From assembly GCA_030427865.1 (NCBI GenBank), contig JAUICK010000007.1, positions 76,831-140,830 of the forward strand: a stretch of 64,000 nt of DNA, given 5' to 3'. The notes beneath the pieces were generated by a model that did not search any database, was not told where the DNA came from, and saw only the letters and a list, made by a program, of their open reading frames with translations. Source of the stretch: Bacteroidia bacterium (GTDB lineage Bacteria; Bacteroidota; Bacteroidia; Flavobacteriales; Flavobacteriaceae). Shown piece by piece: positions 31,680 to 63,808 of the stretch. The translations under genes were made by a program, and so were the position numbers. How positions within the stretch are numbered: position 1 is the stretch's first letter; each line of letters starts with the position of its first letter.

Positions 31680-32318
31680 ATGAAAAAGAAAACTTTTTTA
31701 AAAGCTTTTTTCTACCTTATTATTCTCTGTGTTTTAAGTATTTATTTGTCAAACTATGCCATTGAGAAAAATGCGCAAGAAAAAGTTTTTTCAGAAACTA
31801 CAAAAGTACCAAAGAATAAAGTAGGCTTAGTTTTAGGAACTTCTAAACATTTAAGAGATGGAAGAATAAACCTTTATTACAAGTATAGGTTGGAGGCTGC
31901 TATACAATTATTTAAATCTAATAAAATAGAATTTATTGTAATTAGTGGAGACAATAGCACAAAGAGTTATGATGAACCAACAAATTTTAAAGAAGATTTA
32001 ATAAAAGCTGGAATTCCAAAAAATAAAATCTATTTAGACTATGCAGGTTTTAGAACTTTAGATTCTGTGGTTAGAATAAAAGAAATTTTTGGACAAACTT
32101 CTGTAACAATAATATCTCAAGAATTTCATATTGAAAGAGCCATTTATTTAGCAGAACATTTCAATATAAAAACAATTGGTTTTAATGCAAAAGATATCTC
32201 AGGTAAATATGGTTTAAAAGTAAAATTAAGAGAATATTTAGCAAGAGTAAAGGTCTTTGTAGATATTATTTTTAAAGTAGAACCAAAGTTTTTAGGTAAA
32301 AAGATTGAAATTGAATAA
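31680..32318 (+). CDS. sanA: SanA/YdcF (DUF218) family protein
   Basis: GLVLGTSK, ISGDN, DYAGFRTLDS, SQEFH.ERA, REYLARVK. Confidence 0.88.
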   Translation: MKKKTFLKAFFYLIILCVLSIYLSNYAIEKNAQEKVFSETTKVPKNKVGLVLGTSKHLRDGRINLYYKYRLEAAIQLFKSNKIEFIVISGDNSTKSYDEPTNFKEDLIKAGIPKNKIYLDYAGFRTLDSVVRIKEIFGQTSVTIISQEFHIERAIYLAEHFNIKTIGFNAKDISGKYGLKVKLREYLARVKVFVDIIFKVEPKFLGKKIEIE

Positions 32319-32325
32319 CTTTTCC

Positions 32326-32368
32326 AACTTTGAGACTTTGAGACTTTGAGACTTTGAGACTTTGAGAC
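32326..32368 (+). repeat. Octamer tandem repeat (ACTTTGAG)x5.4
   Basis: Five exact units plus a partial unit, between the convergent sanA and sdaA stops. Confidence 0.95.
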
Positions 32369-32376
32369 TAAAAAAA

Positions 32377-33801
32377 TCAACAATCTGCTAAACCTACATT
32401 AATTGCTAAACCACCTTCAGAAGTTTCTTTGTAGTTTTTATGCATATCTTTTGCTGTTTCCCACATGGTGTCAATAACCTTATCTAAAGGTACTTTTACC
32501 TCTTTGGGATCCGTTTCTAACGCCATTTCTGCTGCATTAATCGCTTTTATGGCACCCATAGAATTACGCTCAATACAGGGTACTTGTACCAAACCTCCAA
32601 TTGGATCGCATGTTAAACCCAAATGGTGCTCCATAGCAATTTCTGCTGCCACTAAACATTGTGCTGGTGTACCTCCTAATAATTCTGTCAAAGCAGCTGC
32701 AGCCATTGCAGAAGAAACACCTATTTCTGCTTGACAACCACCCATTGCTGCAGAAATTGTGGCATTTTTCTTAAAAATACTACCTATTTCTCCAGCCGTT
32801 AATAAAAATTGTTTGATGTGTTTAAAATCTGCTTCGTGATTTTCTATCACCAAATAATACATTAATACAGCAGGAATTACACCTGCGCTTCCGTTTGTTG
32901 GTGCAGTTACAACTCTACCTAAAGATGCATTAACTTCATTTACAGAAAGCGCAAAACAGCTTACCCATTTTAAAATTTCTCTAAACTTAACCTCTGTATT
33001 TCTAATGGCAGTAATCCATTCTTTTTGATTGGAATACACCCCATCTTTTATCAATCTTTGATGCGTATTGTATGCACGTCTTTTTACGTTTAATCCTCCT
33101 GGAAGTATGCCTTCTGTATGACAACCTATGTACATACATTCTAACATGGTTTCCCAAATTCTTGATAATTCAGCATCTATTTTTTCTGCTGAATTTATTT
33201 CTAACTCATTTCTTAAAACAATATCAGAAATTAGCAAATCATTTTTTTCACAATATTCTTCTAATTGTTTTGCTCTATTTATTGGATACGGAAAATTTTG
33301 TTTGTTGATTTCTATTTCCTCTTCTAAACTATCATTTTCTTGCACAATAAAACCTCCTCCAATAGAATAATAAGTCTCTGTTGATATTTCTTGCCCTTTA
33401 GAAAATCCTCTAAACGTAACACCATTAGAATGAAATGGTAAAAAATTGCGATTAAAAACAATTGAATTCTTTAAAAAAGGAATTTTTTTTCCGCCTTTAA
33501 AATGGATTTCTTCTTGTTCGTTAATTCTGTCAACAATAATAAAAATATCTTCAATGGGAATATATTCTGGGTCAGCTTCACTTAACCCCAACAAAATAGC
33601 TAAATCTGTAGCATGCCCTTTTCCTGTTAAAGATAAAGAGCCATACAAATCTACTTTTACAGCATCAATTTCATCAAAAACATGGGTATTTCTAATTTTT
33701 TGAATCCATTCTTGAGCAGCTCTCCAAGGACCTAATGTATGCGAACTTGATGGACCTACACCAATTTTAAGCATATCAAAAACACTAATAAATTGCGACA
33801 T
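32377..33801 (-). CDS. sdaA: L-serine ammonia-lyase (Fe-S dependent, single chain)
   Basis: KIGVGPSSSHT.GP, APTNGSAG, GGCQAEIG, GLTCDP..GLVQVPCIERN. Confidence 0.96.
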   Translation of the reverse strand: MSQFISVFDMLKIGVGPSSSHTLGPWRAAQEWIQKIRNTHVFDEIDAVKVDLYGSLSLTGKGHATDLAILLGLSEADPEYIPIEDIFIIVDRINEQEEIHFKGGKKIPFLKNSIVFNRNFLPFHSNGVTFRGFSKGQEISTETYYSIGGGFIVQENDSLEEEIEINKQNFPYPINRAKQLEEYCEKNDLLISDIVLRNELEINSAEKIDAELSRIWETMLECMYIGCHTEGILPGGLNVKRRAYNTHQRLIKDGVYSNQKEWITAIRNTEVKFREILKWVSCFALSVNEVNASLGRVVTAPTNGSAGVIPAVLMYYLVIENHEADFKHIKQFLLTAGEIGSIFKKNATISAAMGGCQAEIGVSSAMAAAALTELLGGTPAQCLVAAEIAMEHHLGLTCDPIGGLVQVPCIERNSMGAIKAINAAEMALETDPKEVKVPLDKVIDTMWETAKDMHKNYKETSEGGLAINVGLADC

Positions 33802-39262: not shown

Positions 39263-41419
39263 ATGAAACGCATTTTATTTTTACTTTTTACCATAAATCA
39301 ACTTTCAATAGTTGCACAAATTACCATTTCTGGTAAAGTTACAGATACCAAAAACAACCCTATTGTTGGGGCAAACGTATACTTAGATGGTACTTACGAT
39401 GGTGGTACAACTAATGACAAAGGAGAATTTTTATTTAAAACCGATGAAAAAGGAAAGCAAACATTAGTCGTTTCTTTTGTTTCTTTTGAGCCTTTTGTTA
39501 AAATAGACGATGTTTCTAAACTTAAAAATTTAGTCATAAAACTAAGAGATGATATAAATTCTTTAGATGCCGTAACTATAAATGCAGGAACATTTAGAGC
39601 TGGTGATAAAGCCAAAGTTACCGTTTTAAAACCTTTAGATATTGTTACCACAGCAAGTGCTGTTGGAGATGTTTTAGGTGCATTACAAACACTTCCTGGA
39701 ACTGCTGCTGCTGCAGAAGATGGTCGTTTATTTGTAAGAGGTGGAGATGCAGAAGAAACTCAAATTTTTATTGATGGTGTTCGTGTTTTTACACCTTATA
39801 GCCCATCTCCAAACAACGCTCCAACTCGTGGACGCTATTCTCCATTTCTATTCAAAGGAATTACCTTTTCTACTGGAGGATATTCAGCGGAATATGGACA
39901 AGCTTTATCTGGTGTATTAGATTTAACAACAACTGATAAACCTGACCAAGAAAAGACCGATATTTCTTTAATGACAGTAGGTGTAGGTGTTGGAAACACT
40001 CAAATTTGGGATAACAATTCGTTTAGTATCAATACGTCTTACATCAATTTACAACCCTATACAGAATTGTTTCCAGACAGAAATACTTGGTTAAGCCCTT
40101 ATCAATCTGCAAGTGGAGAAATGGTATATAGACATAGTTTTAAAGACGATTCTATGTTAAAAGTTTATGGAGCTTTTAGTTATACAGATTTAGATGTAAT
40201 TCAAGATGATATTAATTTTGATGATGGTTTTCGTTTCGGATTAGAAAACAGAAATTTATACATTAATAGTACTTACAAAAATAAATTTGGTAACAATTGG
40301 AAAATAGAAACAGGGATGAGTTTTACCAATGACCATTCTACTGTAAAAATAATTGACGATTTAATTAACAACAGTGAAAATTCAGCACATTTTAAGTTGA
40401 AATTCAAAAAACTATTCTCAAGTAGATTTAGAGTTGCATTTGGTTCTGAATATTTTATCACAAAGTTTGATGAAACTTACAACCCAATCAATACCTCCTC
40501 ATTTGATTACGGTTTTAACAACAACTTGTTCGCTTCTTTTGCAGAAACTGATATTTTCTTTTCTAAAAATTTAGCTGCTAAAATTGGGGTTAGAGCAGAA
40601 CACTCCAGTTTTTCTAACGAATTCTCCATTTCACCAAGAACTTCATTATCATATAAAACAGGAACAAATTCTCAATTTTCACTGGCATATGGTACGTTTT
40701 ATCAAAACCCAAGTAATAACTATTTAAAATTCGATCAAAATTTAAGAGCAGAAAATGCATCACATTTAATTGCCAACTTTCAACATACCCAAAAAAATCA
40801 AATCTTTAGAATAGAAGCGTATTATAAAGATTATCAAAATTTGGTAAAATTCGATTCTCAAATGCCAAATTTCTCATCAACCTTTTCAAATGATGGAAAT
40901 GCTTTTGCTAAAGGAATTGATGTTTTCTGGAGGCAAAATGGAAAAATAAAAAATACAGACTACTGGGTTTCATATTCATATTTAGACACAGAAAGAGATT
41001 TTAGAAATTACCCAACCAAAGCAACACCCAATTTTGCTTCAACTCATAATTTTTCTTTTGTTGCTAAACATTGGGTAGAAGACTGGAAAAGTCAGTTAGG
41101 GATTACTTATAATTTTGCTTCAGGCAGAACCTATACTAACCCTAATGAATCTGGTTTTTTAAATAACAAAACCAAACCTTACAACTCTGTAAGTTTAAAT
41201 TGGGCATATCTAATAGACCAACAAAAAATACTATATCTCTCTGTAAACAACGCTTTAGGCACCAGAAATGTTTTTGGCTACAATTACAAAAACACACCAA
41301 ATATGAACGGAAAATTTGATAGACAAGCAATTGTACCTAATACAGATAGCTTCTTTTTTGTAGGTTTCTTTTGGACGATTAGTGATGATAAAAAATCGAA
41401 TCAATTAGATAATTTATAA
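39263..41419 (+). CDS. TonB-dependent receptor / outer-membrane beta-barrel with carboxypeptidase-regulatory-like N-domain
   Basis: ISGKVTD..NNPI.GANV; plug DV.GALQTLPG...FVRGG; YSAEYGQALSG. Confidence 0.9.
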   Translation: MKRILFLLFTINQLSIVAQITISGKVTDTKNNPIVGANVYLDGTYDGGTTNDKGEFLFKTDEKGKQTLVVSFVSFEPFVKIDDVSKLKNLVIKLRDDINSLDAVTINAGTFRAGDKAKVTVLKPLDIVTTASAVGDVLGALQTLPGTAAAAEDGRLFVRGGDAEETQIFIDGVRVFTPYSPSPNNAPTRGRYSPFLFKGITFSTGGYSAEYGQALSGVLDLTTTDKPDQEKTDISLMTVGVGVGNTQIWDNNSFSINTSYINLQPYTELFPDRNTWLSPYQSASGEMVYRHSFKDDSMLKVYGAFSYTDLDVIQDDINFDDGFRFGLENRNLYINSTYKNKFGNNWKIETGMSFTNDHSTVKIIDDLINNSENSAHFKLKFKKLFSSRFRVAFGSEYFITKFDETYNPINTSSFDYGFNNNLFASFAETDIFFSKNLAAKIGVRAEHSSFSNEFSISPRTSLSYKTGTNSQFSLAYGTFYQNPSNNYLKFDQNLRAENASHLIANFQHTQKNQIFRIEAYYKDYQNLVKFDSQMPNFSSTFSNDGNAFAKGIDVFWRQNGKIKNTDYWVSYSYLDTERDFRNYPTKATPNFASTHNFSFVAKHWVEDWKSQLGITYNFASGRTYTNPNESGFLNNKTKPYNSVSLNWAYLIDQQKILYLSVNNALGTRNVFGYNYKNTPNMNGKFDRQAIVPNTDSFFFVGFFWTISDDKKSNQLDNL

Positions 41420-41420
41420 T

Positions 41421-41557
41421 GTTTTTAGAAGCCATTTCCAGCTTTCGCTACTCGCTTTTTTTAGTTTGTTCTCGATACAAATTTGTTCATTCTTCTCAAA
41501 TTCACTCGAACAGACACTAAAAAAGAGCTCAAACAGACCGCTCAATCTGGGCTAAAC
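41421..41557 (-). repeat. Structured interspersed repeat (possible Flavo-1 RNA), copy 1, with nested REP at 41468-41515
   Basis: Arms match the copies at 46163 and 51259; the central loop is expanded to ~60 nt. Confidence 0.8.
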
Positions 41558-41598
41558 ATATTTGCCAATACATAGAATAAATTTAAAAAGTCATTTCA

Positions 41599-41677
41599 AC
41601 TTTGAAACTTTGAAACTTTAAAACTTTAAAACTTTAAAACTTTAAAACTTTAAAACTTTAAAACTTTAAAACTTTAA
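41599..41677 (+). repeat. Octamer tandem repeat (ACTTTGAA)x2 + (ACTTTAAA)x~8
   Basis: About 10 units counted directly. Confidence 0.95.
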
Positions 41678-41685
41678 TAAAAACA

Positions 41686-41756
41686 ACAATTCAGAAACAA
41701 AAAACAACAATTCGGTATTATTCTTGTGTAAACTTCAAGAAAACATTAGATATTTG
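41686..41756 (+). promoter_or_regulatory. Direct-repeat-regulated promoter of the DUF2141 operon
   Basis: ACAATTCA and ACAATTCGGT with 21-nt period, then GATATTTG; same spacing as at 39170. Confidence 0.6.
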
Positions 41757-46044: not shown

Positions 46045-46162
46045 TTCTTTTAGATTTTTAGATTGTTGGATATTGAGATTGTTAGACTTTAAAATTACTA
46101 ATTTTAAATGGCTTTTTAAAAAACTCTTTTTGTTGGCTTTTAATTACTAAATTCTGCAAACA

Positions 46163-46250
46163 GGTTTAGCCCTGATTGAAGCAATTGTTTGAGCTCTTTT
46201 TGAGGAACGAAAAAAAGCGAGTGCGAAAAGCAGGAAATAGCTTCTAAAAA
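46163..46250 (+). repeat. Structured interspersed repeat (possible Flavo-1 RNA), copy 2
   Basis: GGTTTAGCCCTGATTGAAGC...GAGCTCTTTTT-loop-AAAAAAAGCGAGTGCGAAAAGCAGG; abuts the SDR stop codon. Confidence 0.85.
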
Positions 46251-46252
46251 AA

Positions 46253-47032
46253 TTACAAACTTTTTGTTCTTCCGCCATCTACAGGAATATTAATTCCGTT
46301 AATATAACTTGCTTGCTCGCTTGCTAAAAACACAATTGCTGCTGCCACTTCTTCTGGCTTTGCAAATCGTTTTGCGGGTGCTGCATTTTTCATAGCTTCT
46401 GCAACTTCATTAAAAGATTTTTCTGTTTTTTGAGCTTTGTTATTAATGATTTCTTTTAGACGTTCTGTACTTGTTGCACCTGGCAACACATTGTTAACGG
46501 TGATGCCGAATTCGCCCAACTCGTTTGCTAAGGTTTTAGACCAATTGGCAACTGCGCCACGTATGGTATTGCTTACACCTAAACCATCTAAAGGTTGTTT
46601 TACGGAAGTTGAAATGACGTTGATAATTCGCCCAAAACATTGGCTTTTCATAAACGGAACCAACGTTTGAACCAAAATGTGATTGCATTTTAAATGTTGG
46701 GTAAATGCATTTTCGAACTCTTCTATTGTTGCATTAAAAATAGGACCTCCTGCTGGACCTCCTGTATTATTTACAAGAATATGGAACTGTAAATCTGACT
46801 TTTCTAATACTTTTTTTAACTCATTGGGTTTAGAGAAATCTGCAATAAGATAGCTATGACATTGTTTGCCATTATGCTTCATTTCAGACAAAGCAGCTTT
46901 TAACTTTTCTTGGTTTCTAGCTAAAAGTGTTACGTTTGCTCCTTCTTCTGCTAATAGTATAGCAGCTGCTTTACCAATACCTTGTGTACTACCACAAACT
47001 AATGCGTTTTTGTTTTTTATGTTTAAATTCAT
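46253..47032 (-). CDS. SDR family oxidoreductase
   Basis: CGSTQGIG, NNTGGP, SNTIR, NNVLPG, IPVDGG; atypical active site lacking YxxxK. Confidence 0.9.
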   Translation of the reverse strand: MNLNIKNKNALVCGSTQGIGKAAAILLAEEGANVTLLARNQEKLKAALSEMKHNGKQCHSYLIADFSKPNELKKVLEKSDLQFHILVNNTGGPAGGPIFNATIEEFENAFTQHLKCNHILVQTLVPFMKSQCFGRIINVISTSVKQPLDGLGVSNTIRGAVANWSKTLANELGEFGITVNNVLPGATSTERLKEIINNKAQKTEKSFNEVAEAMKNAAPAKRFAKPEEVAAAIVFLASEQASYINGINIPVDGGRTKSL

Positions 47033-47037
47033 ATTTC

Positions 47038-47112
47038 TGCCATTCCTGTGTAAACAGGAATCTATTTTTATTTGGTTATTCTGCTATGGATTCCTGCCTG
47101 CTCAGGAACGAT
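47038..47112. repeat. Inverted pair of REP-like hairpins
   Basis: CATTCCTGTGTAAACAGGAATCTA ... TGGATTCCTGCCTGCTCAGGAACGA. Confidence 0.7.
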
Positions 47113-47116
47113 AAGA

Positions 47117-47335
47117 CTATTTATTTTCAATAATCATTTTCTTAATCTTAACCGCTTTTTCAAAATGATCTAATAGATGTGTTTCAATCCACCAAGTGGC
47201 AACTTCCATTAACAAATTTGGGTTGTCATTTTTGTTCTTAAAAAATGCGTAGAATGATACACCTACATTTTCTCATTTTTTTAAAATTTTCTCATCACAA
47301 ATTAGAATGATTTTTTCTCTGATTTCTTTAATCAT
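47117..47335 (-). pseudogene. DUF6500-like small protein interrupted by an in-frame TGA
   Basis: MIKEIREKIILICDEKILKK*ENVGVSFYAFFKNKNDNPNLLMEVATWWIETHLLDHFEKAVKIKKMIIENK*; TGA at 47273-47275. Confidence 0.75.
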
Positions 47336-48773
47336 ATTTTATACAAACATTTTTAGGTTCAGTAAAAAAACGTAAAGCTTCAAAACCACCTTCTCTACCT
47401 ACTCCACTTTCTTTTGCGCCTCCAAAAGGGGTTCTTAAATCACGTAACATCCAAGTGTTTACCCAAACAATTCCAGTTTGTAGTTGTTTAGAAAACTGCA
47501 TGGTTCTATTTAGATTGTTTGTCCATAAAGTTGTTGATAAACCATATTTAACTCCGTTTGCTAAAGTTAATGCTTCTTCATCAGTCTTAAATGACATTAA
47601 GGTTACTACTGGTCCAAATATTTCTTCTTGATTCAATCTACAATTGTTGTCTTGAACTTCTATAATTGTGGGTTGTAAATAATACCCATTTTCATTTCCT
47701 GAGACCACTACTTTATTTCCTCCAAACAAGATTTTTCCTCCTTCATTTTCTGAAATATCAATATAAGATTTTACTTTTTCTAAATGCTGTTTAGATACTA
47801 ATGCTCCAATATCTGTGGTATTTTCTGATGGATTTCCAACCTTTAATTCAGAAACTTTTTTGATAAAGTCTTCTTTAAATTTTTCATAAATAGTTTCTTC
47901 TACCAAAATACGACTTCCACACAAACAAATTTGACCTTGGTTGGCAAAGGAAGAACGCACAGTGGTTTGCAACATATCATCATAATCGCAATCTGCAAAA
48001 ATGATATTTGGGTTTTTTCCTCCTAATTCTAATGATAGCTTTTTAAACATTGGAGCTGCAACTTTGGCAATATGTGCGCCTGTTTTTGTACCTCCTGTAA
48101 AACTAATCGCTTTTATATTTGGATGCTCAACAATTGCCTGACCAGTGGTAGTTCCTAATCCGTGAACAATATTTAAAACTCCTTTTGGCAAACCTGCTTC
48201 GTTACAAATTTCGCCTAAAAAATAGGCTGTTATTGGTGTAATTTCACTTGGTTTAGCAACAACGCAATTTCCTGATGCAATTGCAGGTGCAATTTTCCAA
48301 GTGAAGAGATACAAAGGCAAATTCCAAGGAGAAATACAACCTACAACCCCAAGTGGTTGACGTAAAGTAAAATTAACAGCATTTAAACCCACACTTTCGT
48401 GAGCTTCTGATGAAAACTGGGTAATTGCATTTGCAAAAAACTGAAAGTTGCTTGCTGCTCTTGGAATATCTACTGCTTTTGCTAAACTAATAGGCTTTCC
48501 ATTGTCTTTGGATTCGGCAGCTGCTAAAACATCTATTTTTTCTATAATTAAATTGGCAATTTTTGATAGTATTTTACTTCTTTCATCTAAAGTAGTATTG
48601 CTCCAAGCTGGAAAAGCATCTGCTGCAGCTTGGTATGCTTTTTCTACATCTTCTTTTGAAGAATTTGGAATTTGTCCGTAGATTTCTCCTATTGATGGAT
48701 TGTAGTTATCAATATATACTCCATGTATTGGATTTTCGAATTTTCCGTTAATATAGTTTTGGATTTTATTCAT
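47328..48773 (-). CDS. nbaE: Aldehyde dehydrogenase; likely 2-aminomuconate-semialdehyde dehydrogenase
   Basis: ISPWNLP, FTGGT, LELGGKNP, NQGQICLCGSR, EEIFGPV, DLRTPFGG; context. Confidence 0.85.
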   Translation of the reverse strand: MNKIQNYINGKFENPIHGVYIDNYNPSIGEIYGQIPNSSKEDVEKAYQAAADAFPAWSNTTLDERSKILSKIANLIIEKIDVLAAAESKDNGKPISLAKAVDIPRAASNFQFFANAITQFSSEAHESVGLNAVNFTLRQPLGVVGCISPWNLPLYLFTWKIAPAIASGNCVVAKPSEITPITAYFLGEICNEAGLPKGVLNIVHGLGTTTGQAIVEHPNIKAISFTGGTKTGAHIAKVAAPMFKKLSLELGGKNPNIIFADCDYDDMLQTTVRSSFANQGQICLCGSRILVEETIYEKFKEDFIKKVSELKVGNPSENTTDIGALVSKQHLEKVKSYIDISENEGGKILFGGNKVVVSGNENGYYLQPTIIEVQDNNCRLNQEEIFGPVVTLMSFKTDEEALTLANGVKYGLSTTLWTNNLNRTMQFSKQLQTGIVWVNTWMLRDLRTPFGGAKESGVGREGGFEALRFFTEPKNVCIKYD

Positions 48774-50279
48774 TTATAAATCTGTATTTAAAATTGATAA
48801 ACAAATTTTAATTCCTTGTCTAATATTTCCAATTCTAATATTTTCATTTGGATTGTGTTGATTGTTATCCATATTAACCATTGGTACAATAATAGCAGGA
48901 ATACTTAATTCATTAATTGCTGGGATAATAGGTACTGTGCCTCCCATAGTTCTAATGCTCACAGGTTTTTGTTGAAACGCACTAGTTAAAGCGTTTCTTA
49001 GTTTTTGTCCAAAAGGTGAATTTAACGGAGTTCTAAATGCATTTACACCTGAGTTTCCTTTAAAAGTAACAATTTTGGGGTTTTCTAACCTTTCTTTATC
49101 TGTTGGCTCTCTGTCTAAAACTAAAAAACCCTGTTCTCTTATATGTGTTTTTATTTTTTCTAATTGTTTTGCTCCATCAGTTTCTACCACTAAACGAACA
49201 TCTATGTGCGCAGTTGCATATTCTGGAATAATGGTTTTTAAACCTTTTCCTTTCCATGAAGTTCCTATTTGCCTCACATTTAAAGTTGGATACTGTAATG
49301 CCTCTTGATAGTTCTTACCAACTGCTTCAGGCTTGAAAATAAACAGTGAGTTATTTATTTTTTCTGTGTTATCTGGAACAGAATTTAGAATATTAGCAAC
49401 TTCTTTATCAATTGTAATTCCTTTATAATACTCTTTAATCAAAACTTTTCCTTCTTCAGATTTCATAGAAGATAATAACCTCGAAAGGCTAAATACAGGG
49501 TTCTGAACATAGTTGCCATAATGCCCACTGTGCTGAGGAAGTTTAGAACCATAGGTTGTAATACTACATCTTGCAATTCCTCTACACCCAAAAGTTAATG
49601 TTGGTTGATTCGAATTGTGTGCAGGACCATCCATTATAATCATATAATCTGATTGATATTGGTTCTTGTATTTTTTTAATGTTGATAAAAATCCTTTTGA
49701 ACCATATTCTTCTTCTAAATCGAAAATAATTTTAATGTTGAATTTTGGAGTTTTGTTTTGTTTTTGCATCAATTCTAAGGCTGATAAAAACATTACAACT
49801 GGTGCTTTATCATCGGCAGCTGCTCTTGCAAAAATCCGCCAATCGTCATTAATTTTTTCTTGTAAACTCGACCATGCTATAGATTTCCATCCTCCATCTG
49901 TGTTTTTTTCTTTTAAAACCGGACGAAATGGGTCTTTTTGATTCCACATTTTCGTGTTTACAGCTTGTCCGTCTAAATGAAAGTAAAACAAAACTGTTTT
50001 AAATGAAGGGTTTACAATTCTTTCTGCAAATAAAACTGGTAAGGTAGAAGATTCAAGGTTTTTTAATTGAAAGCCTACTTTTCTGTATTTTTCTTTAACC
50101 CAACTTATGTTTTCATACATTTTCTTGATATTCGAAGGCAGGTTAGGTATGCTTACAAATGTTTTATGATTCATTATAACTTCATAAAGTTTCGAGTCTA
50201 TTTTCGTATCCCAATTTTCTTGGGCATTCAAAAAACAGAACGAAAATAAAACTGTAAATAATACTATTATTTTTTTCAT
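48774..50279 (-). CDS. Secreted M20/M25/M40 metallohydrolase
   Basis: Signal peptide; HLDGQ, RAAADDK, EEEYGS-like motif, DGP, HNPNEN. Confidence 0.85.
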
Positions 50280-50683
50280 GATTGTTTCTTATAAGCAATT
50301 ACTTTAATTTCTACTACCAAATCTGGATGTGGCAATTGATGTACTGCAACTGTGGTTCTTGTTGGGCCTGTTGCTGTATTAAAAAACTCTGCATAAGCTC
50401 TATTATAATCTGCAAAATCATTCATATTTACTAAGAAAGAAGAAACATCTACCACATCTTTTAAACTTGCACCAACTGTGTTTAAGTTTTGATTAATGTT
50501 TTGTAAAACTTCTTTGGTTTGTGTATATGCATCTAATTTTTTAGTTCCCATTTCATCAATAATAACCACTCCTGCAATGGTATTATCTGCTCTTCTTGAG
50601 CTGGTTCCTGAAACAAAAATAAAATCGCCCACTACTTTTACATGTGGATATGCGCCTCTTGGTGTTACTTTTTTTTCTGACAT
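50276..50683 (-). CDS. nbaF: RidA-family protein; likely 2-aminomuconate deaminase
   Basis: [36 protein letters not shown]. Confidence 0.85.
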
Positions 50684-50685
50684 AA

Positions 50686-51206
50686 TTATTTTGTTGCTAA
50701 TTCTAATAATTTTAGAGTTGTATTATAATTTCTTGTGGTTGCTGTTACATTCAATTTTCTTTCAAATAAATTATTAGAAAGTTTGGTTTTCGCAAAGGTT
50801 GATGGACAATAGAGATAAATCAAATCATCAACTATTTTATATGCGTCATCTCCAACATTTTTTATTTCTATTTTTGTATTTGTGGGTATATTGTCTAAAA
50901 AAATAAATGCTACTATTTTCTCGTTTTCTATTGAAAAAGGATAATTCTCAATCGCTTTTTTCCATTCTAAAATTGTTTTAGCAATCACTGGAACAGTATA
51001 TCCAAATCTATTTAAAATTTCTTGTTTTATTTTCTTACAAATTACTGATTTACTTTCCTCAGCATCTAAAATGATATTCCCACTTTGAATATAAGTTTGT
51101 ACATTTTGAAAACCCAAATTGTATAATAAACTACGTAAATCTGCCATAGGTAATTTGTTTTCCCAGAGACATTTATGCCACGTAATAAAACAATGTATTT
51201 TCTCAT
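50686..51206 (-). pseudogene. DUF1697 family gene with a 1-nt frameshift
   Basis: MRKYIVLLRGINVSGK from the ATG at 51206 is out of frame with NKLPMADLRS..YIQSGN; one A missing at 51158-51161. Confidence 0.8.
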
Positions 51207-51258
51207 TTATTTAAACTTTCTATTTCTTATTTAATAAATTAATGGTTTTTATAAATAA

Positions 51259-51348
51259 GGTTTAGCCCTGATTGAAGCATTTGTTTGAGCTCTTTTTTCT
51301 TTTCAGAAAAAAAGCGAGTGCGGAAAGCAGGATTAGCTTCAAAAAAAA
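51259..51348 (+). repeat. Structured interspersed repeat (possible Flavo-1 RNA), copy 3
   Basis: Near-identical arms to copy 2 with a different 8-nt loop; abuts the kmo stop codon. Confidence 0.85.
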
Positions 51349-52773
51349 TTACAATCCAGCTATTTTATCTTCCCTTAAAATATCTTCTGTTTCTTCTTTT
51401 ACTTTGTTCAAAACAATTTTTAGTTCTTTTTTGGTCATTTCTAATGATGTTGAAATGTCTTTATCAGCAATTAAATTCAACAACGCTTTGTCTTGGGCTC
51501 TACCTCTTTTCATTGCTTCATTATACCCTATTTCTTCATTAAAAGTGACTAATGAATATTTTGAAAAATACTGATTTGGAAAATGCTTTTCTAAATCCAT
51601 TTCAAGTTGCCTTTTTTCTTTAAACAAAGGATTTGCAACGTGATCTCGCATTTCGTAAAAATTATCAATTGCCAAATCTGCAATGGCGTCAGTGTCTTTT
51701 TTTCTTGCTTTTTCATAAGCTTTAAAAACAGTTTCCCAATCAAAGATTTCTCGACTGCGCTCGAAATGACACAAAACCTCATCAAAAACTACTACATCTT
51801 CAAAAGAAGCATTCATTCCTTGTCCGTAAAAAGGAACAATGGCGTGAGCAGCATCTCCCATTAACAAGGTTTTCTTTTGATAAGACCAAGGACTGCATTT
51901 TACAGTTCCTAAAGCTCCAGTTGGATTGTTGGTAAACTCTTCTTTTATATTAGGAATCAATGCCAAAGCATCTGGAAATTCTTTCTCGAAAAACTCGGTT
52001 ATTTTTTCTTCGGATGTTAAATTTTCGAAATTAAATTCGCCTTCATCATAACTCAAAAAGAGTGTTACTGTAAAACTTCCATCTATATTTGGTAAAGCAA
52101 TTAGCATAAAATCGCCACGAGGCCAAATGTGTAAATGGTCTTTACTTATTTGATGATTTCCATTTTTATCTGCTGGAATTTCCAGCTCTTTATATCCGTG
52201 ATTTAAATAATTTTGAGCATAACTAAATAAGAATTTACGTTCTGAAATATAACTTTTACGTAACGATGAACCTGCTCCATCTGTTCCGAAAATAACATCT
52301 GCTTTTACTTTAAATTTCTTACCAGTTTCATAACTTTTAAAATGAGCTACTTTGTTTTCTATGTCTACTTTTTTACATCCACTATTAAAATGAATGTTTA
52401 CATTTTTGTGCTTTTCTGCCTCATCTAATAAAATGGCATTTAAATTGCCTCTTGAAATGGAATTGATATATTCTCCTGTTCTACCTGAATAGTTCGAAGC
52501 AAATGTATTTCCTACTCTGTCATGCATTAATCTTCCATACATGGGTATGCAGATTTCTCTGACTTTTTCTTCCACTCCACATAAACGCAAGGCTTTTAAA
52601 CCTCTATCTGACAATGCTAAATTGATGCTTCTTCCAGCAGAAATATCTACTTTACGTAAATCGGGTCTGCTTTCATATACCTCTACTTTATAACCTCTTT
52701 GTGCTAAACGTAAAGCTAAAAGCGAACCACAAAGTCCAGCTCCAATGATTACTATTTTATCGTTTTTATTCAT
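51349..52773 (-). CDS. kmo: Kynurenine 3-monooxygenase
   Basis: IIGAGLCG, GRSINLALSDRG, HIWPRG..MLIALPN.DGSFT, GDAAHAIVPFYGQGMN. Confidence 0.96.
   Translation of the reverse strand: MNKNDKIVIIGAGLCGSLLALRLAQRGYKVEVYESRPDLRKVDISAGRSINLALSDRGLKALRLCGVEEKVREICIPMYGRLMHDRVGNTFASNYSGRTGEYINSISRGNLNAILLDEAEKHKNVNIHFNSGCKKVDIENKVAHFKSYETGKKFKVKADVIFGTDGAGSSLRKSYISERKFLFSYAQNYLNHGYKELEIPADKNGNHQISKDHLHIWPRGDFMLIALPNIDGSFTVTLFLSYDEGEFNFENLTSEEKITEFFEKEFPDALALIPNIKEEFTNNPTGALGTVKCSPWSYQKKTLLMGDAAHAIVPFYGQGMNASFEDVVVFDEVLCHFERSREIFDWETVFKAYEKARKKDTDAIADLAIDNFYEMRDHVANPLFKEKRQLEMDLEKHFPNQYFSKYSLVTFNEEIGYNEAMKRGRAQDKALLNLIADKDISTSLEMTKKELKIVLNKVKEETEDILREDKIAGL
51744..51771 (-). repeat. REP-like repeat translated in-frame inside kmo (CHFERSREI)
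   Basis: TGTCATTTCGAGCGCAGTCGAGAAATCT, codons 335-343; 26/28 identical to 24348-24375. Confidence 0.8.
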
Positions 52774-52789
52774 TTTTTATTATTTGAAA

Positions 52790-52822
52790 AGACCTCAAAG
52801 GTTTTAAAAACCTTTGAGGTCT
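52790..52822. repeat. Perfect palindrome between kynU and kmo
   Basis: AGACCTCAAAGGTTTT-A-AAAACCTTTGAGGTCT, 16-bp arms. Confidence 0.9.
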
Positions 52823-63579: not shown

Positions 63580-63655
63580 TATGTGCTAAACTTTTAAAAG
63601 AATTTAAAAATACACTTTTAGCTGGATATTAAACATTAAAGCTTATAAATATGTT

Positions 63656-63808
63656 GCGTTAAGGATTGAAATGGAAATCCTTTTTATGCTGAATTTGATT
63701 GTACATCTCTTAAACTAAATTCACTTCCTATTAAAAAAAACAAAAGAGTTAAAATAATTTTTTGCATAAAAAGATTGTAATGGAAAGCCTGACCTGAAAG
63801 GTAACGCC
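63656..63808 (+). repeat. Related structured repeat variant (possible Flavo-1 RNA), copy 4
   Basis: GCGTTA..GATTGAAATGGAAATCCTTTTTATGC-loop-GCATAAAAAGATTGTAATGGAAAGCC..TAACGC. Confidence 0.65.

Follow-up and report, generated by a model that had tools for sequence, protein, structure and literature searches.

Flavo-1-related hairpin repeats abutting stop codons in a Polaribacter genome

A structured repeat follows several stop codons in a fixed orientation in a 64-kb stretch of a Polaribacter genome, which raises the question of what this repeat is and why it lies at gene ends. The genome (3.34 Mb in 63 contigs, here G000) was analyzed together with the stretch itself, contig C17:76831-140830, hereafter called the window. 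A first-pass annotation of the window had described three copies abutting TAA stops, with conserved arms and a variable loop, and had likened them to the Flavo-1 RNA motif. All three copies were found at the places given there. Each begins at the first base past the TAA with an 8-nt T-rich leader followed by GAAGC, so that the distance from stop to GAAGC is exactly 8 nt in copies 1, 2, and 3; the arms are conserved and the loop is variable, copy 1 carrying a 56-nt nested insert. On balance, we favor the reading that Flavo-1 is a structured DNA repeat resembling repetitive extragenic palindromic sequences (REPs) and miniature inverted-repeat transposable elements (MITEs), which is co-transcribed behind genes.

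Flavo-1 copies and their placement at gene ends

The window was compared with Rfam by cmscan, at the gathering cut-off and then with E-value reporting. At the gathering threshold of Flavo-1 (RF01705; 42 bits), one match was obtained, a fourth copy. With E-value reporting, copies 1–3 matched Flavo-1 and no other family (E 9e-6 to 0.05), although each scored below the threshold. In each of the four copies, the strand matched by the Rfam model was the one opposite to the upstream gene. A search of the whole genome with RF01705 gave 28 matches, 14 of them above the gathering score, whereas an nhmmer profile iterated to convergence gathered 48 copies. That one profile collects all 48 indicates sequence continuity with bona fide Flavo-1 members, and the outer arms (GUUUAGCCCUGAUUGAA...AAAGCAGGAAAUAGCUUC) are common to copies 1–3 and to G000 copies scoring 68–71 bits. 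The resemblance to Flavo-1 was therefore upheld by the cmscan matches, the architecture, and the arms. The Rfam model passes just 14 of the ~48 copies and thus overlooks about two-thirds of those in this genome; annotation pipelines would consequently under-report Flavo-1 and assign the matches they report to the strand complementary to the surrounding message.

The copies share with the Flavo-1 motif a covarying basal helix (CCUG/CAGG or GGG/CCC), a UU/AA pair step, GAA/GAA purine loops, a 2–4-bp covarying helix, a U-run/A-run stem, and an apex of variable length, as well as the taxon (Flavobacteriia/Bacteroidota) and the presence of many copies per genome. They are mosaics. The outer arms belong to type 1 (GUUUAGCCCUG...CAGGAAAUAGCUUC) or type 2 (GCGUUAGGG...CCCGUUAAAACGCCC) and the inner module to type a (GAAGCAUUUGUUUGAGCUC...GCGAGUGCGAAAAGC) or type b (GAAACGGCAUCC...GAUAUAGUGGAAAGC), and all four combinations are present; the apex is a recurrent loop (GAGGAACG or GAAGAAUG), a private stem extension, or a nested insert of 50–100 nt. 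Whereas the G000 copies with inner module b score 47–71 bits, copies 1–3 carry inner module a (..GCAUUUGUUUGAGCUC..GCGAGUGC..), which explains their low scores of 26–40 bits. Judged from these sequence comparisons, copies 1–3 belong to a branch of the Flavo-1 repeat family that has diverged, the "inner module a" subfamily.

According to an information profile of 64 copies from other genomes, the element begins 8 nt before GAAGC and ends 12–23 nt past GGGCUAAAC (UUGUUUGCnAAC UUUUAGAA). The element thus exceeds the coordinates first given to it by the 8-nt leader and a trailer of 12–23 nt (TTGTTTGCnAAC TTTTAGAA, mRNA sense). It is a non-coding unit of ~100–110 nt that consists of the T-rich leader, the short trailer, and, between them, a long imperfect hairpin whose purine-rich internal loops are conserved and whose apex varies freely. 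Read in the sense of the upstream gene, copies 1–3 run TAA, leader, GAAGC...CCWGCUUU...CUCGC-U-run-loop-A-run-GAGCUCAAAC...CAAUCWGGGCUAAAC. The copies in the window and the genes before them are as follows.

41420–41581, minus strand favored by Rfam and by the fold, upstream gene on plus: copy 1 (outer type 1, inner type a); Flavo-1 26.4 bits, E 0.051, minus strand
Parts of copy 1: TAA 41417–41419 (plus); leader TGTTTTTA 41420–41427; core GAAGCC..GGGCTAAAC 41428–41557; trailer ATATTTGCCAATACATAGAA to ~41581
41463–41518, strand not assigned: nested insert of 56 nt in the apical loop of copy 1; hairpin family GTTCTCGA...TCGAACAGAC
46145–46252, plus strand: copy 2 (type 1a); Flavo-1 34.6 bits, E 2.8e-4, plus strand
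Parts of copy 2 in the Rfam sense: 5' extension/trailer 46145–46163; core GTTTAGCC..GCTTC 46164–46244; A-run (complement of the leader) 46245–46252
Copy 2 on the minus strand: TAA 46255–46253; leader TTTTTTTA 46252–46245; GAAGC from 46244 to GGGCTAAAC at 46164
51243–51348, plus strand: copy 3 (type 1a); Flavo-1 40.0 bits, E 9.1e-6
Parts of copy 3: weak trailer 51243–51259; core 51260–51340; A-run 51341–51348
Copy 3 on the minus strand: TAA 51351–51349; leader TTTTTTTT 51348–51341; GAAGC from 51340 to 51260
63645–63808, plus strand: copy 4 (outer type 2, inner type b, loop insert of 67 nt); Flavo-1 47.3 bits, cmscan match 63653–63798
39263–41419, plus strand: TonB-dependent receptor gene, its TAA stop directly followed by copy 1
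46253–47032, minus strand: short-chain dehydrogenase (SDR) gene, its native TAA stop directly followed by copy 2
51349–52773, minus strand: FAD monooxygenase (kmo-like) gene, its native stop directly followed by copy 3

Copy 4 has the same orientation toward its upstream gene, which lies on the minus strand, and is located 59 nt from the stop, past a terminator-like hairpin. The genes downstream of copies 2 and 3 encode a 3-hydroxyanthranilate dioxygenase (3-HAO) and a DUF1697 protein, respectively.

To place all 48 copies relative to genes, G000 was annotated with our own caller based on open reading frames (ORFs) and codon usage (2,974 genes, 89.5% coding), and an orientation was termed canonical when the Rfam 3' end faced the stop of the upstream gene. 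The Rfam 3' end faced a stop codon in 38 of the 48 copies. Spacers between same-direction genes held 33 copies and convergent spacers 11; divergent spacers, which make up 25% of the intergenic bases, held only 4 (8%). Between same-direction genes, canonical copies outnumbered flipped ones by 27:6 (p = 3e-4). The GCTTC/GCCC end was within 6 nt of a stop in 15 of the 48 copies against 2.9 expected, and none of 200,000 simulations, in which copies were placed and oriented at random inside their own intergenic regions, gave as many as 15 such copies. Of the type-1 copies, five had a distance of exactly 8 nt from stop to GAAGC and two had 9 nt, and in three copies of the genome the stop of the gene was the element's own TAG (U-UAG-AAGC). 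Type 2 showed the same habit, a stop being followed by 5 or 8 nt and then GGGCGUU. Orientation relative to the gene and abutment to the stop are thus real features of the family, and the copies are not scattered at random in position or direction.

The strict placement claimed for the window also extends to other Flavobacteriaceae. An exact 18-mer of the arm (GAAGCTATTTCCTGCTTT) was present in at least 120 public contig stretches, mostly from Polaribacter, with further records from Tenacibaculum, Flavobacterium, Tamlana, Lacinutrix, Algibacter, and Chryseobacterium. Orientation and distance were scored at 80 loci among these stretches, some of which are orthologous to one another, so that the following p-value overstates independence and the cross-genome counts are inflated: canonical copies outnumbered flipped ones by 35:9 (p = 1e-4; 64 copies), and the upstream neighbor offered its stop in 50 of 64. 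A long same-sense ORF ended within 12 nt of GAAGC in 35 of 79 copies, with modes at 8 and -1 (8 nt in 10 copies, -1 in nine, and 5–7 nt in nine). Five related complete genomes held 12 to 55 type-1 arms each. Flavobacterium johnsoniae carries Flavo-1 as well. The 18-nt arm was also seen in metagenome-assembled contigs labeled Pseudanabaena, Melainabacteria, and Syntrophomonadaceae (among L095, L123, L139, and L171), and the flank in a Flavobacterium contig of this kind (L123) was identical to that in L095; these remote labels may be attributed to binning contamination or to transfer.

Several simple reasons for this placement were considered. With replication direction estimated from gene-strand-corrected GC skew, a replication-strand rule of the kind seen for IS200/IS605 gave 29:15 overall and 6:6 in convergent and divergent contexts, compared with 27:6 for gene direction, indicating that the orientation is set by the gene and not by replication. 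The trinucleotides TAA/TAG do not suffice as a DNA target because 13 of the 17 found next to a leader in the public set were true stop codons. A longer target, TTGTAA, was suggested by an apparent enrichment of TTG as the last codon at four loci, with which the public set disagreed. A ribosome-spacing reason for the 8 nt was weakened by the nine copies at -1, where the stop is the element's TAG, and by orthologue pairs in which 8 became -1 through 9-nt deletions. Tolerance explains part of the abutment, since 40% of the same-direction spacers in G000 are 20 nt or shorter and the kmo junction had no other viable insertion point. It is not the whole explanation because the SDR junction offered 21–41 nt and two convergent spacers more than 200 free bases, yet the element lies at the stop.

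Strand of the fold, and gain and loss at orthologous junctions

RNAalifold on a plain MAFFT alignment recovered the basal helix only, and a structure of 18 pairs was therefore drawn by hand on 19 copies with inner module a. Of the paired cells, 90.5% could pair, compared with 80.4% in column shuffles. Covariation was 0.231 against 0.066; none of 500 shuffles reached 0.231, and sliding the partner gave at most 0.08. Double-sided changes occurred in five pairs, such as CG/GC/AU and UA/GC/CG/AU of the basal helix and GC/CG/UA of the helix after it. In the Rfam sense, the proposed pairs contained 10 G-U against 1 A-C. Minimum free energy (MFE) was lower for the Rfam-sense strand in 29 copies and for the other strand in 10 (mean -20.2 versus -17.1 kcal/mol), and the same nested fold recurred in the Rfam sense, whereas the complementary strand gave assorted folds. 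A closing helix between leader and trailer was also considered and rejected, as the mRNA-sense MFE folds were inconsistent while the canonical fold recurred in the Rfam sense.

Because the covariation, the G-U excess, and the lower and more consistent MFE all belong to the Rfam-sense strand, the selected fold lies on the strand antisense to the upstream gene. The element would accordingly be transcribed behind the gene, in the 3' untranslated region (UTR) or between cistrons, as the reverse complement of the Rfam model. The first-pass annotation was right as to the resemblance, but its "mRNA sense" is the reverse complement of the Rfam RNA. This strand preference argues against a sequence-specific RNA in the 3' UTR and for a role at the DNA level, as a single strand, or in antisense.

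Orthologous junctions were compared in relatives that are different species, with flanks 70–93% identical. At the SDR–3-HAO junction, the element directly follows the native stop in G000, G002, G011, and G022, and in G008 it is located farther from the stop, behind a type-2 element. The junction is empty in G024 (21-nt spacer) and G009 (41-nt spacer), where the same stop is present and the T-run is not; six further species have 64–122 nt of unrelated spacer. A type-2 element of opposite orientation directly follows the stop in G016, G023, G001, and G008.

At the kmo–DUF1697 junction, the stop is directly followed by ATG in G002, G076, G049, and G068, and in ~5 more species as suggested by the coordinates of high-scoring segment pairs only; in species where the kmo TAG abuts the DUF1697 ATG, the 141-nt spacer at 51208–51348 of the window is wholly missing. 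A type-1 element starts from the next base in G000, G059, G066, G071, G073, and G070, with inner module a in three of these species and b in three. In other species, this position is occupied by a GIY-YIG endonuclease gene that brings its own GTCTCCTCGAGCGCAGTCGAGAGGT hairpins, by a RAYT gene between REP hairpins, by a solitary REP, or by a repeat of the form CCCATCCCAACCTTCCC...GGAGAGG. Eighty metagenome relatives, at most 88% identical, contributed eight empty junctions and seven type-1 copies, all seven of them canonical and five at stop + 8 nt. The kmo stop junction is an insertion hot spot across Polaribacter (L029–L048, L213–L292), and the gene downstream of kmo varies by species, being DUF1697 or RidA-like.

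Twelve further G000 loci were set against five complete genomes, and gain or loss was found at loci 2, 3, 7, 8, 9, and 11. At locus 2, behind a murA-like gene, three species have an HNH-type endonuclease gene where G000 has Flavo-1: a free-standing ORF of ~190 aa lies between the murA-like stop and the terminator in G002, G059, and G066 (L057, L060, L061), which are the species without the Flavo-1 copy of G000:C63:232039. At loci 4 and 9, the element is kept in nearly all sampled species (5 of 6 at locus 9) and is as conserved as the coding flanks. At loci 1 and 7, the 8-nt layout collapses through a 9-nt deletion to the state in which the stop is the element's TAG, and at locus 1 this deletion alters the last residues of the protein.

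The first-pass annotation had proposed comparing empty sites between sister strains; across sister species, each case studied retains the position of the native stop, and the empty sites have no T-run. The T-run therefore arrives with the element and is part of it. An insertion preference for TAA plus T-tracts, as suggested at first, does not fit these sites, which have no T-tract (TAG|ATG at kmo; TAA|ATTGAT... at SDR).

Copies also resemble each other within the genome. At 8 of 10 loci, G000 copies were nearer to other G000 copies (84–98%, loop included) than to their positional orthologues (47–92%). Copy 2, for example, was 98% identical to C17:60826 and 95% to C60:41775, compared with 82%, 79%, and 72% to the same-junction copies of G002, G011, and G022. 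Such likeness may be attributed either to copies converting one another or to the re-use of occupied sites.

A proposed REP/MITE-like repeat and rival readings

Since its entry into Rfam in 2010, Flavo-1 has had neither a function nor an orientation rule assigned to it, and its family description does not include stop-codon abutment, gene orientation, leader and trailer, module mosaicism, or gain and loss. The present results add the start at the base next to the stop, a fold on the antisense strand, the exchange of modules, and junctions shared with homing-endonuclease and RAYT units. The preference for a REP/MITE-like repeat follows from the behavior of the element, which is multicopy, mosaic, nested, gained and lost, and homogenized. 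Its 48 copies are short extragenic palindromes at gene 3' ends, as REPs are. In PMC12306157, the REPs and bacterial interspersed mosaic elements of Enterobacteria are dispersed intergenic hairpins that accumulate between cistrons and at the 3' ends of genes; many of them lie no more than 15 nt from the stop, and they are co-transcribed and long-lived at orthologous sites. The same is true of Flavo-1. Flavo-1 differs in being longer, in its conserved internal loops and swappable modules, and in that the better-folding strand is antisense to the mRNA. REPINs are mobilized by RAYT transposases; in contrast, the RAYT-like genes of G000 are flanked by CCTnnAAGGTTT..AAACCTTnnAGG and not by Flavo-1. 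Like the bacterial MITEs transcribed together with genes, such as Correia/CREE, ERIC/IRU, RUP, and Rickettsia RPE, Flavo-1 is small, non-autonomous, structured, and multicopy, lies at or in gene ends, and is present or absent at orthologous sites. MITEs can recode C-termini, and here three G000 genes end in the TAG of the element and the C-terminus is altered at locus 1. No terminal inverted repeats beyond the hairpin, target-site duplication, or cognate insertion sequence was identified for Flavo-1, in which it is unlike the MITEs.

On the REP/MITE-like reading, the element would land or survive at gene 3' ends, typically at the first base past the native stop and with its fold-favored strand antisense to the gene, and would then be co-transcribed in the 3' UTR or between cistrons. 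It would move or be copied as DNA, probably via a single-stranded hairpin. Once in place, a hairpin whose base is 8 nt or less past the stop could act like the stop-proximal REPs of Escherichia coli and impede the terminating ribosome, which would alter the expression or stability of the upstream message. In PMC12306157, REPs are proposed to affect the terminating ribosome and mRNA decay, and E. coli REPs that lie closer than 16 nt to a stop are summarized as lowering translation (Liang et al. 2015). By analogy, a plain 3'-UTR hairpin may affect processing, stability, or translation. If stop-proximal hairpins act in this way, they would tune dozens of genes in each flavobacterial genome; if the element is only selfish DNA, its scarless insertion against the stop still needs a mechanism.

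Several observations weigh against the REP/MITE-like reading. No target-site duplication was detected, the best match between left and right 8-mers being 5.88 within copies and 5.94 after flanks were swapped; TTTTAGAA at both ends, a candidate for such a duplication, belongs to the element consensus. The search for terminal inverted repeats beyond the hairpin itself was likewise negative, and no mobilizing enzyme for Flavo-1 was found. RAYT was rejected in this role, as the two weak Y1_Tnp (RAYT-like) genes (23.7 and 22.1 bits in one search, 19.4 and 20.9 in another) are flanked by a different hairpin, and no Flavo-1 copy is nearer than 1.3 kb, two genes lying in between. No recent insertion at the strain level was seen, the only same-species record (one contig) ending inside the element. 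Copies are kept at the same site at locus 9 (clpX-type) and locus 4 though the flanking genes are 80–87% identical, and such long retention of an element as conserved as its coding flanks could reflect selection at the host level. Exact abutment to true stops is hard to obtain from a DNA-level mechanism alone. In the Flavobacterium psychrophilum transcriptome (PMC9723704), Flavo-1 hits were "indistinctly" sense or antisense to transcripts, and many were outside transcripts. Finally, a REP-like RNA effect would rest on the weaker and less consistent fold because the fold-favored strand is absent from the upstream mRNA.

In a first rival reading, Flavo-1 would be a host-selected, cis-acting RNA of the 3' UTR or intercistronic region, which stabilizes messages against 3' exonucleases, serves as a processing site, or modulates termination or translational coupling. 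Elements would then be kept behind particular genes for the effect of the hairpin on the mRNA, mobility accounting for their arrival only. The strict gene-relative orientation and fixed 8-nt spacing, the long persistence of elements at orthologous sites, where compensatory or module changes have preserved the hairpin, the insertion inside operons without loss of the downstream gene, and the precedent of E. coli REPs all suit this explanation. However, the strand complementary to the mRNA is the one that has the G-U pairs, the conserved purine loops, and the covarying fold, so that the 3'-UTR role proposed at first is weakened insofar as it implies a sequence-specific RNA. Moreover, the upstream genes (TonB receptor, SDR, kmo, murA-like, and clpX-like loci) have no function in common, many relatives have no element at the same junction, and the copies are homogenized within the genome rather than tuned per gene. 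As for termination, which had also been suggested, no terminator-like site was found over the copies on either strand, and the U-run precedes the hairpin in the mRNA sense. At kmo the element is probably not a strong terminator, since it sits between genes that directly abut (TAG|ATG) in most relatives. We regard a host-selected, cis-acting RNA as unlikely.

The abutment itself might be explained if placement senses gene ends instead of a DNA word, either through integration where translation and transcription uncouple past the stop or through attC-like recombination of the template strand. We hold this to be quite unlikely. If true, it would give scarless insertion at the first base past the stop in an orientation set by the gene, and the gene ends of Flavobacteriaceae would become exchange points shared with homing-endonuclease and RAYT units.

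The attC comparison can be pressed further. An attC site forms an imperfect hairpin, conserved at its base and variable at its apex, that lies directly past the stop of an ORF in a fixed orientation and whose functional fold is on the bottom strand. Flavo-1 shares all of these properties, its fold-favored strand being the bottom strand of the upstream ORF. The element could thus be a single-stranded landing site, recognized by a recombinase or HUH enzyme, that marks gene ends where short mobile genes and other repeats are swapped; the same junctions carry GIY-YIG, HNH, or RAYT genes or other repeats in other species, and inner modules and loops are exchanged between copies at a fixed site. In contrast to attC, Flavo-1 does not have the RYYYAAC...GTTRRRY box pair in attC order, its single GTTTAGC/GTTAGGG-like box being at the end opposite to that of attC, and it does not form cassette arrays but is scattered behind core genes. 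No integrase or attI was seen, although no integrase-directed search was made, and no candidate enzyme was found. The co-location with mobile DNA may only reflect the few sites tolerated in tight operons. An integron-like recombination site is, on these grounds, improbable.

Rfam lists Flavo-1 as Gene; sRNA, and the motif was marked as a probable RNA, not cis-regulatory, with its taxonomic range only, by Weinberg et al. 2010 (PMC2864571). An independent small RNA gene in the Rfam sense, convergent to the upstream gene and acting as an antisense or protein-binding RNA, would agree with the fold, the G-U pairs, and the conserved loops on that strand. Nevertheless, the Bacteroidetes -7 box TAnnTTTG upstream of the Rfam-sense start was neither enriched nor positioned (8 scattered matches against 12.8 expected), the hairpin is followed by an A-run instead of a terminator, and the ~48 copies are mosaics with nested loop inserts of 50–100 nt. 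No consistent expression was evident in the F. psychrophilum transcriptome (PMC9723704). The label "sRNA gene" gains no support from the present results, and such a gene appears very improbable. A match to a sigma-54-like promoter, TGGC-N7-TTGC, was also considered as the element's own promoter and rejected, being seen by eye in 2–3 of the 48 copies, all of type 2. In a few type-2 copies (C12:133079, C17:63855), the 5' extension TGGCAAACAAGTTGC resembles a sigma-54 -24/-12 promoter pointing into the hairpin, which is probably due to chance.

Retroposition, in which DNA synthesis on an Rfam-sense RNA with an A-rich 3' tail is primed at the stop codon, would account for the RNA-type fold and for the T-run in the sense strand of the gene, fits target-primed reverse transcription in its topology (the Rfam strand being hairpin + TAAAAAAA + TTA) and agrees with the absence of target duplications of fixed sequence, but it is scarcely credible, given that no ORF of the genome had reverse-transcriptase motifs in two crude motif screens, that the RNA has no promoter, and that we know of no bacterial system that works so.

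Neighboring repeats and minor observations

A blastn search of phage and plasmid collections gave no match to the element. The hairpin family nested in copy 1, GTTCTCGA...TCGAAC(A/T)GAC, recurs in the apical loops of Flavo-1 copies (41463–41518 in the window, C17:63855, L008, L027, and L039), and GTTCTCGA...TCGAACAGAC was found in Flavo-1 loops of other species and beside GIY-YIG genes. Its repeated presence there suggests that a further element uses the loop as a landing site.

Units of 8 nt (AACTTTAA/AACTTTGA; GACTTTGA) are arrayed in tandem upstream of genes at 41590–41693 and 32318–32381, one of them just 3' of copy 1.

The hairpin that flanks the RAYT-like genes, CCTnnAAGGTTT..AAACCTTnnAGG, is simpler than Flavo-1, and the genome has at least 43 copies of it. 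The stems of this second repeat family (CCTnnAAGGTTTnnAAAACCTTnnAGG) covary, and a T-run often comes after the hairpin, as in a terminator. It lies on both sides of a RAYT-like Y1 transposase gene (C34:53560, C34:54200; L022:1405-1440, 2060-2095); repeat hairpins on both sides of such a gene are the classical REP/RAYT arrangement. One CCTnnAAGGTTTnnAAAACCTTnnAGG copy is located in the window at 52793–52819, between the start of kmo and the next gene. At C42:72924-74486 (L021:1429-2991), a 520-aa open frame combines a RAYT-like N-terminal domain with a complete coproporphyrinogen III oxidase; this frame may represent a fusion or a pair of genes with no stop between them.

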